In this document: positions 12,155 through 14,588 of the stretch, in pieces
How the letters are laid out: each line of letters begins with the position of its first letter
Position numbering within the stretch: position 1 is the stretch's first letter
Assembly: GCA_030704615.1 (NCBI GenBank)
Contig: CM060731.1
Coordinates: 1,240,001-1,304,000, forward strand
Source: Takakia lepidozioides
Lineage: Eukaryota > Plantae > Bryophyta
Reading direction: 5' to 3'
Length of the DNA stretch: 64,000 nt
Notes under the pieces: model-generated
Seen by the model: the letters and a program-made list of their open reading frames with translations, nothing else
What the model was told of the DNA's origin: nothing
Database searches by the model: none
Program-made: the position numbers and the translations under genes

Positions 12155-12690
12155 AATAAATAAAGTCCCATTGTAAATACTACATTGCATATGCTCGACC
12201 CTGGCACCTGTCATCGCAACATAAATGGTTTGTGTACTGGCTCACTGTTTATATTTGTAATGTTCCAAGGTTTCGGATAGGGTTATGAGAAAACGATGTA
12301 TTAGTTCCGTATGAGTTAGACAACAAACGTCTACTTTCATTCAACTGTGCGACACTACCATGAGAGGTATGGATCGGAAAGTAATAGGTGCACATGCGAC
12401 CTCCGAACGTTTGATACTAAGTCTCTACTTAAACGTGCGGAGGTCGCATGTACACCTATTACTTTTTTTTATCCATGTCACTCATGGTAGTATCGCACAG
12501 TTGAATGAGATATGGAACGTTTGTTGTCCAACTCCTATGGATCCAATATATCATTTTCTCAGTACCCTGTCAGAAACATTGAAACATTCGCAGTTACAAA
12601 CAGTGCCACAATACACGGCCGGTTTTGTTGAAATGACATTTGTGAGGTTCGAGCGTATGCAATTTATTATTTACAACGGAATTTTATTTA
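12155..12690. repeat. Long imperfect palindrome P1 (arms ~265 bp, centre ~12421)
   Basis: Core gtaataggtgcacatgcgacctccgaacgttt / aaacgtgcggaggtcgcatgtacacctattac. The outer arms also align, e.g. ttcattcaactgtgcgacactaccatgag vs ctcatggtagtatcgcacagttgaatgag. Confidence 0.9.
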
Positions 12691-12763
12691 CTCGGGGGAT
12701 CGGTACTGCCGTTGGAGCGCAACTGATGGTGCGAGTTCTCTATTGATTGGAGCTGTCACAACC

Positions 12764-12941
12764 AATGTTAATATTCTCCACCTGGAACAGATCCACATAT
12801 GTGTGCAGAAATCCTTAAAAAACAAATGACCATCTCAACTTTTATAAGCCTCATCCCCAGCTTCCAGTTTTGATGGTCATTTGGTTTTTTAAGTTATATA
12901 CGCATGTGTGGATATGTTCCAGATGAAAGATATTAACATTG
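12764..12941. repeat. Palindrome P2 (arms ~77 bp, centre ~12853)
   Basis: caatgttaatattctccacctggaacagatccaca...aaatgaccatc pairs with gatggtcatttg...tgtggatatgttccagatgaaagatattaacattg. Confidence 0.9.
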
Positions 12942-13140
12942 AAAAAATAAGAGTTGGAGAAGCACCTCATTACGAAGCAAGAGACATTAAAGAAGACCTC
13001 AGCATGTTGAACATCTGGATGAAGAACCTTGCCCATTGTCGCTTCAAAGTTCTAGCGCTTCTGAAATGATCACATGTTTGTTGGTGGAAGCAGATCTCGT
13101 AGGCCACATTGATCTCGTACCCATCGAAGACTCCCGTAGG

Positions 13141-13226
13141 CCACATGGAACGGTTCATGTGATACATTTTCACAAATGTGATGTGATACATTTGTGAAAT
13201 GGTATCACATCAACCGTTTAATGTGG
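13141..13226. repeat. Palindrome P3 core (centre ~13183), weakly extending to ~12960 and ~13400
   Basis: ccacatggaacggttcatgtgatacattttcacaaatgt / acatttgtgaaatggtatcacatcaaccgtttaatgtgg. Confidence 0.88.
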
Positions 13227-13304
13227 TCAATGCACGTCTTCCGCACCATCGCGGAAATGTTCGCCACTTGAAAGCACAAACACAAATAATCCGTGCAAAC
13301 AATA

Positions 13305-13665
13305 TCAAGAATCATATGTACTGCAAGGTGTTTCATACTGCCGATGTTCATGTAGCAGAATTATTTAGGAATCATTTTGCTACTCCCATGCCAACAACAT
13401 CAGGTCCACTGCGACTGCCATATTCCGAATTCCGTATCAGCCACCACGGATATGAAACCAGGAACTTCGCACAAAATCTCCAATTCATTCAATTTATGGT
13501 GGGCCATGGCTGCAGCCTGCAAGCTGGCCGGGGTGGCTGATACGTCCGTTTGAACATGACAGTCTCAGATGACGTTGGCATGGGAATAGCAAAAAGAGTA
13601 CTACAGAATTCAGCTAGAGAAACAACAATAGCATGAAACACTTTACCGTAAATATGATTGTATAT
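13305..13665. repeat. Palindrome P4 (arms ~145 bp, centre ~13488)
   Basis: cgtatcagccacc / ggtggctgatacg; ttgctactcccatgccaac / gttggcatgggaatagcaa; aatcatatgtactgcaaggtgtttcat / atgaaacactttaccgtaaatatgatt. Confidence 0.85.
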
Positions 13666-13729
13666 TGGATAAAGTGGACATGGAGAAGCACCGCATTTCG
13701 AGGCAGGAGATACTACAAAAAGAGCTTCA

Positions 13730-14145
13730 AAGGGCATACCATATAACAGGTCCCAGTATAATCGAAGACGAAACCCCATTCATTCAATAGGCGATTGAAT
13801 GGTTGCCCATCCAAATGATTTTTGTTTGCTTTCAATCTTTGCCATTATGTTTAACATACCATGTATCAGGTCCCGGACTAATATCAGATCAATCGAAATT
13901 CATGCGATGACTCAACGGATGGTTGGCCATCGAAATGATTTTGTTTCGCTTTGAGACTTGGCCACTATGTTCAATGTGCCATGTAAGAGGCCCCAGAGTA
14001 ATATGAGATCAATCGAAATTCGTTCAATGGGCCAACGGATGGTTGCCCATCCAAATGATTTTCGTTCGTTTTGAAACTTGGCCAGTGTGTTCAATGTACC
14101 CTCTGATACGTCCCAGTGTAATATGAGATCAATTGAAATTATTTT
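13730..14145. repeat. 120-bp tandem repeat, ~3.5 diverged copies
   Basis: ggttg(c/g)ccatc(c/g)aaatgattt at 13801, 13921 and 14041. taatat(c/g)agatcaat(c/t)gaaatt recurs with the same 120-bp period. Confidence 0.9.
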
Positions 14146-14588
14146 GTACTTTAAGAACTTTGTGGGTATGTTCATAGAAAGATCATAGATTTTGCGAAAT
14201 GATTATGAAATACGCAGGGACCAGGCGAAATTTGTTTGGAAGAGGACCGTTCGTAACTCGTTATAACTTATTTGTTAACATCAATTTTCCTTGTTCTCCA
14301 GCTTTCGGAGTTCATTGCAAATACCCATATACACGTCATGACCAAATATGACACCATTGTAAATTTGTTTACAGGGTGAACCACTTCTTCCCCATCACAC
14401 GAGTGTAAATGTGAAGAAAACGTTGCTCGTGCAATTGAAATTGGCAGGTGCCGCACATGTGCATTGGGTATTAACAAAATTGGTAATATACAAACTTGGC
14501 GGAATGTCATCACTGTGTTTTCCAACAATATTCAAGGTACAACAAAAATGCATATTGTATATGTATTATGCTGTCAGTCATTCAAAGT

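Follow-up and report, generated by a model that had tools for sequence, protein, structure and literature searches.

Four different long hairpins in the spacer between the convergent genes of a Takakia lepidozioides repeat unit: a possible source of family-silencing small RNAs

The question raised by this locus is why several long palindromes lie back to back between two convergent genes, and whether they act as RNA, as DNA or not at all. In the window (the whole stretch of 64,000 nt that was analysed) four different palindromes were found where the preliminary description had placed them, namely H1 (12157-12690), H2 (12763-12941), H3 (13126-13241) and H4 (13300-13667). When folded against shuffled controls, all of them proved far more stable than the shuffles, with z values of -23.5, -12.7, -10.2 and -8.3, respectively. 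H1 consists of arms of ~265 nt that are 76-80% alike and form 222 base pairs around a loop at ~12413-12430; its minimum free energy (MFE) is -287.5 kcal/mol and was equalled by 0 of 100 shuffles. For the other three, 60 shuffles each were used. H2 has arms of ~78-90 nt with 67 pairs, H3 has arms of 54 nt with 47 pairs and an 8-nt loop, and H4 has arms of ~150-185 nt (66% alike over 385) with a large, badly paired centre (13450-13527). In size, H3 resembles a plant miRNA precursor. In a joint fold of 12080-13760 the four form separate domains, with centres at ~12421-12427, 12853, 13183 and 13471-13489, and DNA parameters likewise give stable folds (-156, -46, -34 and -77 kcal/mol).

The palindromes are mutually unrelated in sequence and, as stated from the outset, do not form a simple tandem array. 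The sole part shared is a tail of ~60 nt, which follows H2 as tail A (12938-12999, + strand) and recurs as a direct repeat after H4 as tail B (13664-13726), the two being 74-80% alike (80% over 46 nt). The impression that the arms are best matched near the loops holds for the ungapped segments of H1 (94% at the loop, 79% at the base) but not for the pair density of the stem, which is nearly flat. A weak fifth palindrome suspected at ~14397 had to be dropped, given that the interval 14330-14470 folds at shuffle level (MFE -34.2 against a shuffle mean of -34.3, z 0.02). Five non-satellite palindromes were detected in the 64-kb window, four of them inside 1.5 kb; the other one, at 43846-44206, is isolated, GC-rich and resembles a terminal inverted repeat (TIR). 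The hairpins are non-coding, AT-richer than the adjacent genes and situated in a gene-free gap. Eight ORFs from the hairpin region and the left part of the surrounding repeat unit (six of them inside the 12074-14588 spacer) gave 0 families in Pfam.

The gap had been described as a 2.3-kb intergenic region bounded by stop codons at 12155 and 14475. It does lie between two convergent stops, which homology places at 12071-12073 and 14589-14591, but it is not a unique locus. The hairpin cluster is the central spacer of a repeat unit of ~9 kb or more, and thus an internal part of a high-copy repeat with decayed flanking genes. The unit comprises, in order, a left array, a kinase-like gene, the hairpins with a 120-nt satellite, a RING gene on the opposite strand and an inverted right array. 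The left array (9488-10014) is built of ~50-nt units with the short palindrome GACCGCC-N6-GGCGGTC (5 exact motif matches against 0 expected), and the right array (16981-18650) repeats these short-palindrome units in the opposite orientation, as self-BLAST shows, with 14 exact motif matches. The satellite (13739-14140, + strand, 120 nt x 2.8), which the preliminary description had missed, forms no hairpin (unit z +0.7). The left start of the unit lies near 9319-9348: in public DNA contigs of the same organism (X1) the left flank (9000-9348) is covered at depth 60 by one single-copy contig of 3232 nt, which has 0 differences and stops at 9348, and summed depth rises from 60 to ~20,000 past 9300. 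On the right side depth is still 6,400 at 17729-18000.

Outside the arrays, a search for terminal inverted repeats of the unit gave only homopolymer and short chance matches. No transposase, recombinase or replicase was recognisable in it by Pfam, Foldseek or PHROGs (0 matches in the last), two ORFs being all that it holds. Placement with the LTRs of Sirevirus/Copia elements did not hold either, as the terminal arrays are inverted, not direct, and Pfam recognised a kinase and a RING domain only. The carrier is a high-copy unit with two intronless genes and apparently no transposase. Elsewhere in the window, Ty3/gypsy elements occupy 28691-41040, and the nearest relatives of a glyoxal-oxidase ORF are moss proteins (69-71% identity), for which reason a fungal source of the window was rejected.

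The kinase-like gene (10676-12073, + strand) is divergent, intronless, decayed and full length with respect to its ~495-aa relatives (residues ~5-494 in tblastn). Its frame is interrupted by one TGA (11454-11456) and shifts near 10900 and 11810-11828; its Pfam match to Pkinase (E 1.8e-7) is below the cutoff, and 43 relatives share 40-45% identity with it. The RING gene (14592-16928, - strand) is likewise intronless and decayed, encodes a coiled-coil RING-finger protein and has three in-frame stops. It lacks the middle part of its 1077-aa relatives, residues 1-191 of the relative P0123 corresponding to 16928-16380 and residues 588-1058 to 16004-14643. A word-based homology search with this ORF gave 0 matches, and a HMMER search gave 105 relatives, of which P0123 was the best (35% identity, E 8e-67). 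The AlphaFold model of the protein (mean pLDDT 54.8) shows an N-terminal domain, a coiled coil and the RING only, and nothing beyond the RING was recognised by Pfam, a PDB profile search or Foldseek. The window copy of the unit is dead, given its in-frame stops and frame shifts. In the family, position 11456 is G in most contigs, which restores TGG, and position 15219 (stop 15219-15221) restores TGG in all contigs there. Relatives of both genes otherwise come almost all from metagenomes and read assemblies.

In the public DNA contigs of this organism the unit occurs as many variants that are 90-99% alike. Over 9301-18000, 21,401 short contigs of X1 were aligned, 5703 at an identity of at least 99%, 8764 at 95-99% and 6934 at 90-95%. 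Summed depth over this interval ranges from 5,500 to 76,000 per bin, a quantity that does not measure copy number, so that "hundreds of copies" is an order-of-magnitude reading. The 120-nt array reaches a summed depth of 1.84 million in X1 and 3678 in X5, compared with ~30,000 and ~30 alongside. In 12100-13740 (1641 nt) there are 24 sites at which half or more of the family depth disagrees with the window, 19 of them with A/T in the window and G/C in the family. Eighteen majority differences within the hairpins could be evaluated: nine turn a mismatch into a pair, four turn G-U into G-C, two break a pair and three remain mismatched. Since the family majority pairs better than the window copy, the hairpins predate amplification. 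Furthermore, arm divergence of ~20% is common to the family, and therefore the imperfect hairpins have persisted through the long active life of the element.

We tentatively favour the view that the palindromes are a built-in spacer that provides silencing RNA for the element family. Read-through transcripts from the convergent genes would enter the spacer and fold to long imperfect double-stranded hairpins, plant Dicer-like enzymes would likely cut these into siRNAs, and the siRNAs would silence the whole family. Transcription into the spacer, dicing and silencing are steps that we infer from two analogues, the inverted-repeat siRNA loci of plants and the maize Sirevirus LTR hotspot. H1-H4 have the structure of an inverted-repeat siRNA locus, i.e., a long inverted repeat with a short spacer and folding of one strand. 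The right arm of H3 (13190-13219) resembles the 5' part of the RING coding sequence (16737-16708) at 26/30 nt and 37.4 bits, a score reached by 0 of 200 shuffles (maximum 32.8). Apart from these 30 nt, no similarity was found between the hairpins and the two genes of the unit. A strict scan of hairpin-derived 21-mers against both genes (exact seed 2-11) gave 0 target matches under a seed rule that is probably over-strict, the H3-RING gene match itself having a mismatch within the seed. Normal polyadenylation might cut before the hairpins are transcribed, because both strands carry an AATAAA right where the H1 stem begins (12158-12163 and the mirror position). It may also be held against silencing that self-targeting is not apparent beyond the 30 nt of H3 and that comparative support comes from one contig.

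At gathering thresholds Rfam assigned no family to the hairpins, the only match in the window being an LSU rRNA fragment elsewhere. When the hairpins were scanned by E-value, MIR5048 scored highest, at 33.9 bits where 160 is required, and several sub-threshold miRNA families matched both strands, which reflects hairpin shape only; no curated miRNA precursor family was matched. No tRNA was found. Of the sequencing runs listed as containing the stretch, none is recorded as RNA. From X6 and X7, two read sets that are only guessed to be RNA, 5 and 13 contigs, respectively, were aligned to the window. Their contact is confined to the 120-nt satellite and to 11394-11651, 13401-13514 and 15390-15455, and the majority of these contigs continue into unlike sequence.

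The closest parallel concerns maize Sireviruses (Copia), in which a palindrome-rich, hairpin-forming region of the LTR is an siRNA hotspot (Bousios et al., 2016, PMC4728375). The position of that region is conserved and its sequence evolves fast, and it was proposed to be a hairpin small-RNA template aiding family silencing (PMC4728375). The two cases are alike in that several different palindromes are clustered in a high-copy plant repeat, whereas the Sirevirus palindromes lie in the cis-regulatory part of the LTR and their siRNA mapping was measured (PMC4728375). The present unit also differs in having no LTR, reverse transcriptase or integrase, and in carrying its palindromes between convergent 3' ends, with much longer arms (up to ~265 nt).

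Plant inverted-repeat siRNA loci and proto-MIR genes arising from inverted duplication, such as Arabidopsis IR71 and IR2039, are host loci present in one copy and recognised by the small RNAs sequenced from them. The window hairpins are comparable to them in having long imperfect inverted repeats and short loops, from which RDR-independent dsRNA would be expected, as well as in H3, which is precursor-sized and matches an own gene over 30 nt. Unlike those loci, they occur four in a row within a multi-copy element and have no Rfam family. MuDR, a transposon with two convergent genes, is silenced by Mu killer, in which part of MuDR is present as an inverted duplication. The similarity lies in the convergent two-gene element and, on the silencing reading, in a hairpin RNA of element origin as the trigger. 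Mu killer arose by rearrangement, sits at a single locus and is homologous to the transposase gene, whereas the hairpins described here are spread across the unit family, match own genes only in 30 nt of H3 and are accompanied by no MULE transposase.

It is rather unlikely, but to be taken seriously, that the palindromes are a neutral by-product, i.e., functionless scars of fold-back or template-switch repair in a tolerant non-coding part that were copied along with the unit. Arm identity across the hairpins is just 66-83%, as scars would allow. A bias of mismatches towards G-U on one strand, raised in the preliminary description, did not materialise: transition mismatches give G-U 25 times on the + strand and 24 times on the - strand, and the 49 transitions and 58 transversions between the arms of H1-H4 show no transition excess. 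Transitions being about as frequent as transversions, both RIP-like mutation and an arm-to-arm bias towards transitions were rejected. No compensatory double changes occur among the 24 family-majority differences in 12100-13740, and neutral decay of the dead window copy would by itself leave the majority better paired. The changes specific to the window weaken a pair in 13 of 18 cases, as neutrality predicts, and structural instability is seen among the copies, one isomer being inverted and others, at low depth, lacking internal stretches around the centre of H1 (such as 12375-12540, 12400-12506 and 12457-12510). On the other hand, scars would not readily explain why ~20% arm divergence is found family-wide with only 24 majority differences in 1641 nt, nor the strong clustering of four consecutive palindromes with none inside the genes or arrays.

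Distant relatives bear on the same point. Among eight metagenome loci, L006 is the sole one with both gene families, and its ORFs are intact. Between its genes lies a nested palindrome of 1.9 kb, with outer arms of 655 nt at 77.5% identity and an inner hairpin of z -20.8. Its palindromes start ~270 nt past the ORF1 stop, ahead of the upstream array of the next gene, and show no DNA similarity to the window hairpins and no significant similarity to the L006 genes. G-U counts in the outer palindrome are 40 and 38, in line with neutrality, but the presence of equally imperfect palindromes of unrelated sequence at the matching place, in a relative with intact genes, argues against mere scars. Another locus, L007, has a palindrome (z -8.9) ~400 nt past the kinase stop. 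In L001-L005, which belong to a more distant kinase subfamily, no palindrome was found in the 0.9-2.1 kb of downstream sequence present in those contigs.

An improbable alternative is that the hairpins act as a transcription stop or barrier, ending or pausing both convergent units and thereby preventing antisense dsRNA across the coding regions. The position would suit this role, since H1 begins 84 nt past the stop of the kinase-like gene and the cluster occupies the space between the convergent 3' ends; the place of the L006 palindromes past the ORF1 stop agrees with it. However, the RING gene stop is ~920 nt away from H4, the nearest hairpin, and a nuclear gene of a plant would be expected to rely on poly(A) signals, such as the AATAAA that exists at the H1 base. 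To our knowledge, arms of 54-265 nt far exceed any known terminator-type hairpin. The "hairpin rule" of Mimivirus concerns short 3'-end hairpins in a cytoplasmic giant virus that are unrelated in sequence between genes. With those signals the window palindromes share a location directly downstream of stop codons, this position being the only fit; in contrast, they have arms of 54-265 nt and belong to a nuclear plant repeat with no viral core genes. In the ESM Atlas the kinase family has Nucleocytoviricota kinases as its nearest clusters (score 0.97), a lead only in favour of a viral-type signal, but the kinase alignment had 0 relatives in viral_contigs and Pfam detected no viral hallmark domain or gene in the unit. 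In the text of an NCLDV paper (PMC4083422), a term search gave no occurrence of kinase, RING, hairpin or palindrome.

A structural role at the DNA level, with cruciforms or recombination sites serving replication or rearrangement of the element, e.g., by flip-flop of the central block, seems very unlikely to us. It draws on the finding that the block of H2, tail A, H3 and H4 (12766-13664) exists in both orientations among the copies, being inverted in part of the family as judged by opposite-strand joints. The joint of 12765 with 13664 has a depth of 3260 in X1, 313 in X2 and 21.5 in X5, and that of 12768 with 13661 a depth of 798, 190 and 26, respectively; the loose end behind 12768 is the reverse complement of ~13640-13661. 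The inverted orientation appears to be dominant in X5. Stability with DNA parameters and the lack of strand bias would also fit a role as double-stranded DNA. Nevertheless, the inverted repeat shared by the breakpoints is weak and only ~11 nt long, cruciforms form poorly from imperfect arms, and Pfam, the structure model with Foldseek, and PHROGs recognised no enzyme of recombination, replication or transposition.

Least of all do we expect a nest of foldback-type MITEs, in which separate non-autonomous transposons would have been inserted into the spacer before the unit was amplified. Like such elements, the hairpins are palindromic, non-coding and AT-richer than the neighbouring genes in a gene-free gap, and the TIR-like palindrome at 43846-44206 indicates that foldback-like elements may exist in this genome. 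Unlike them, they lack target-site duplications (TSDs) and a copy number of their own, and no family copy shows an empty site. Depth in 55-nt bins is 11,000-105,000 without a step at the hairpin borders, which are bridged by contigs; H1 has 11,000-38,500 and never exceeds its flanks (37,000-42,000), H2-H4 are within ~2-3x of theirs, and all hairpins lie at ~0.3-3x. None of the 12 joints listed is a clean whole-hairpin excision, and no other copy of any H1-H4 arm was found in the 64-kb window. An 8-9-nt near-repeat (GATCGTAC / GATCGGTAC) located 6-7 nt outside each H1 end might pass for a TSD, but it does not adjoin the arms and its two halves match less well in the majority of the family (12149 A>G, 12700 T>C), and none was seen at H2, H3 or H4 on reading the sequence. 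Independent MITEs, each with its own TSD, which the preliminary description had set against an RNA role, are thus unlikely because there is no depth step at the borders, no clean excision and no convincing TSD.

A broader version of the silencing reading can be put forward, although we hold it to be doubtful. The unit could represent an undescribed type of plant repeat in which a pair of kinase and RING-ligase genes is combined with palindromic arrays and with its own cluster of hairpin-RNA genes. H3 would then be miRNA-like, derived from an inverted copy of the RING gene, and the cluster would tune the family for the benefit of the element or of the host. In distant plant lineages the same arrangement, with arrays upstream and long palindromes downstream, would be kept despite sequence turnover. 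Literature searches on hairpin/siRNA, giant-virus and kinase/RING/palindrome subjects found no published description of the unit.

If the hairpins are inert repair scars, the locus is ordinary decayed repeat DNA. If they are transcribed and diced, the unit would be a second, structurally different plant repeat family with its own hairpin source of small RNAs, after the palindromes of maize Sirevirus LTRs. It would also be the first such source in a bryophyte-grade plant, and would bear on how the silencing of a repeat family is started and maintained.

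Our analysis revealed four long imperfect palindromes between 12157 and 13667, in the spacer of a two-gene repeat unit of about 9 kb. Repeat finding and self-BLAST placed these hairpins, designated H1 to H4, at 12157-12690, 12763-12941, 13126-13241 and 13300-13667, respectively. When 12080-13760 was folded as one piece they remained separate domains, with 222, 67, 47 and approximately 125 pairs. H1 had an MFE of -287.5 kcal/mol, whereas 100 dinucleotide shuffles averaged -130.6 +/- 6.7 (z = -23.5), and with 60 shuffles H2, H3 and H4 reached z values of -12.7, -10.2 and -8.3. Together with the repeat finding, these folding values therefore confirm the four back-to-back palindromes of the preliminary description, except for a weak fifth hairpin placed near 14397 (14330-14470), which folded no better than its shuffles (z = 0.02). 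The palindromes had also been described as unlike in sequence, and indeed a tail of ~60 nt located 3' of H2 and H4 is all that is common among them. H1 folds alike on both strands (-287.5 vs. -287.7), and H2-H4 show modest strand differences whose direction varies by hairpin.

Two decayed intronless ORFs converge on the hairpins, a kinase-like gene on the plus strand and a RING-finger gene on the minus strand. The former (10676-12073) is full length, corresponding to residues ~5-494 of relatives of ~495 aa, and carries one in-frame TGA and two frame changes. Its 43 relatives (~40-45% identity) are metagenome or read-assembly proteins, save one Ceratodon hypothetical protein, and have in common the motifs LHNDLSPDNILLHFP and IGVCDWG. 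The RING-finger gene (16928-14592) contains three in-frame stops. A full HMMER search returned 105 relatives, the best of which (P0123, 1077 aa) aligned at 35% identity across 456 residues. The six that were looked up, all derived from read assemblies or metagenomes, carry either no name or the label "hypothetical protein". The structure model of the 1077-aa relative, usable in parts only given its mean pLDDT of 54.8, has a confident N-terminal domain, a long coiled coil and a RING; Foldseek and a PDB profile search with this relative gave no fold other than RING. In the ESM Atlas, the kinase family (P0237) falls in a Streptophyta cluster of its own (phylum known for 51 of 55 members), the nearest other clusters being Nucleocytoviricota kinases (0.97), and the best match of P0123, a weak one (0.84), is a Nucleocytoviricota RING cluster. 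These neighbors are a lead toward a giant-virus link, which a scan of viral_contigs with the kinase alignment, giving no matches, did not support.

The two genes are flanked in inverted orientation by arrays of ~50-nt units (left, 9488-10014; right, 16981-18650), each unit comprising a 7-9-bp palindrome and an A/T-rich spacer. The motif GACCGCC-N6-GGCGGTC has 19 exact matches, all of them within the two arrays, with none expected. A dimeric protein could bind at these units, or the arrays could serve as promoters or enhancers.

Public contigs carrying the same organism label were aligned to 9000-18000. In sequencing run X1, 9000-9348 is covered by a single 3232-nt contig of depth 60 without differences. 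From 9301 onward, 21,401 short contigs align, 5703 at 99% identity or above, 8764 at 95-99% and 6934 at 90-95%, with a summed depth per 300-nt bin of 5,500-76,000 and of 1.84 million on the 120-nt satellite. Summed depth is no copy number, and we take it to mean only that the unit has many diverged copies, probably hundreds. Changes from window to family are strongly skewed, with 68 A>G and 72 T>C vs. 12 G>A and 20 C>T; the window copy has thus lost G/C compared with the rest of the family. Two of five in-frame stops (11456 and 15219) are among the 40 of 283 differences listed, and both are TGG in most or all of the contigs there, which indicates that the family is, or was, protein-coding and that the window copy is dead. 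The 120-nt tandem repeat adjoining the hairpins (13739-14140, 2.8 copies) exceeds the rest of the unit ~60-fold (X1) to ~100-fold (X5) in summed depth and also occurs in contigs of X6 and X7, which are guessed to be RNA runs; in this genome it probably represents a major satellite or else a short element of very high abundance. One of its units showed no hairpin excess over shuffles (z = +0.7).

A second contig alignment (12100-13740; runs X1, X2 and X5) at 55-nt resolution showed no depth step at any hairpin border. In X1, depth was 11,000-38,500 in H1 vs. 37,000-42,000 in the flanks, and 23,600-105,000 across H2-H4. The borders are bridged by contigs, and none of the 12 joints listed removes a whole hairpin, the events being low-depth internal deletions and one well-supported inversion. 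No target-site duplication (TSD) was seen in the sequence flanking H2-H4, and H1 has only an offset near-repeat, poorer in the family majority (the base carried by at least half of contig depth). A nest of independent MITEs, each with its own TSD, as considered in the preliminary description, is thus unlikely.

Within 12100-13740, at least half of the depth disagrees with the window at 24 sites, 19 of which are A/T in the window and G/C in the family. None of the 24 is the pairing partner of another, so the anticipated compensatory changes between copies did not appear. In the arm-to-arm alignment, 19 sites fall inside hairpin spans and 18 could be scored; the MFE-based pairing map disagrees with this alignment at one site, 12333. 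A window mismatch becomes a pair in the majority at nine sites (one in the H1 loop, three at span margins) and a G-U becomes G-C at four, two are paired in the window alone and three are mismatched in both. The family majority therefore forms a better hairpin than the window copy. A divergence of ~20% nevertheless remains between the majority's arms, which makes the imperfect hairpins older than the amplification and shows ancestry rather than selection. Dominant X5 contigs, leaving out three of depth <4, carry 16 differences over 1086 positions in the hairpin region and 87 over 2679 in the gene regions, a weak additional point that the lower G+C of the hairpin region could explain. With regard to RNA-level selection, no excess of transitions was found between arms (49 vs. 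58 transversions), and transition mismatches, examined for strand bias as the preliminary description suggested, would give G-U 25 times on plus and 24 times on minus. No known RNA family was found for H1-H4.

The block from H2 to H4 (12766-13664) is present in both orientations among family copies, with opposite-strand joints 12765|13664 and 12768|13661 in X1, X2 and X5; the inverted form appears to be the main one in X5, and the breakpoints have in common only a weak ~11-nt inverted repeat. In the right arm of H3, 13190-13219 resembles the 5' portion of the RING coding sequence (16737-16708), with 26 of 30 nt identical (87%, 37.4 bits). Against the two genes, 200 dinucleotide-shuffled versions of the hairpin region scored 32.8 at most. 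This is a lead that H3 may derive from a fragment of the RING gene of the element itself, duplicated in inverted orientation. A strict-seed scan of hairpin-derived small RNAs against the two genes found no targets. Contigs of X6 and X7 match only the ~100-nt center of H4 (13401-13514), with 1-3 differences each, and from a common point (13401) run on into sequence unlike the window; hence this segment is also present in a different context.

The kinase alignment was also scanned against metagenome contigs, yielding eight loci of 2.0-7.7 kb. Only L006 (7738 nt) holds both gene families and is apparently an intact relative of the unit. Its ORFs, in tandem on one strand, are intact: one of 361 aa shares homology with RING-family proteins at their N-terminus but has no RING, and one of 535 aa is kinase-like. 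Upstream of each lies a G+C-rich array of a different short palindromic motif, and between them a 1.9-kb nested palindrome unrelated in sequence to H1-H4 (outer arms at 2051-2705 and 3294-3950 with 77.5% identity; inner hairpin at 2909-3291 with 131-nt arms, 85% alike, z = -20.8). An array followed by a gene and a long palindrome is thus convincingly seen in one other case, which is suggestive (n = 1). L007 has a weaker palindrome ~400 nt 3' of the kinase stop, partly a 10-nt microsatellite (z = -8.9), L008 stops 83 nt past the gene, and L001-L005, a more distant subfamily, have no palindrome in 0.9-2.1 kb downstream.

ORFs are short throughout the window, and Ty3/gypsy domains, a fragment of LSU rRNA and exons of glyoxal oxidase are also present. 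The glyoxal-oxidase ORF is closest to moss proteins (Ceratodon 69%, Sphagnum 67-68%), which places the window in a land plant, probably one related to mosses. The eukaryotic LSU fragment (91 nt, 19571-19661; Rfam RF02543, 55 bits) is isolated, just right of the repeat unit. Glyoxal-oxidase gene pieces form a large inverted duplication (19877-22173 vs. 44718-46809, 79-94% identity) enclosing ~22 kb with nested Ty3/gypsy retrotransposons (28691-41040, repeats 91-96%). The one non-satellite palindrome of the 64-kb window outside H1-H4, at 43846-44206, is isolated and G+C-rich (76% over 392 nt; z = -28), with TIR-like ends and outer arms 91% alike. It starts the region ~500 nt upstream of the second copy of glyoxal oxidase and is a possible foldback-type element.

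Concerning function, we tentatively favor a reading by analogy, in which read-through transcription into the spacer would form a hairpin RNA that would be diced into siRNAs acting on the whole family. Plant inverted-repeat loci giving rise to siRNAs are established biology, and this is one reason for the proposal. The other is the presence of palindromes in Sirevirus LTRs (PMC4728375). That H1-H4 are neutral repair scars is rather unlikely, and that they act as a transcription barrier or 3'-end signal is more doubtful again. DNA-level recombination structures are very improbable, and old nested MITEs, inserted before the unit amplified, are marginally less credible still. A literature search of limited coverage and terms found no description of such an element. 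H1-H4 are real hairpins in a high-copy two-gene unit, ancestral in its family, decayed in this copy and without MITE hallmarks. Hairpin-capable palindromes in a plant repeat are an already known phenomenon; this case is new in its carrier, in lying between convergent 3' ends, in its arm lengths and in the plant lineage concerned.
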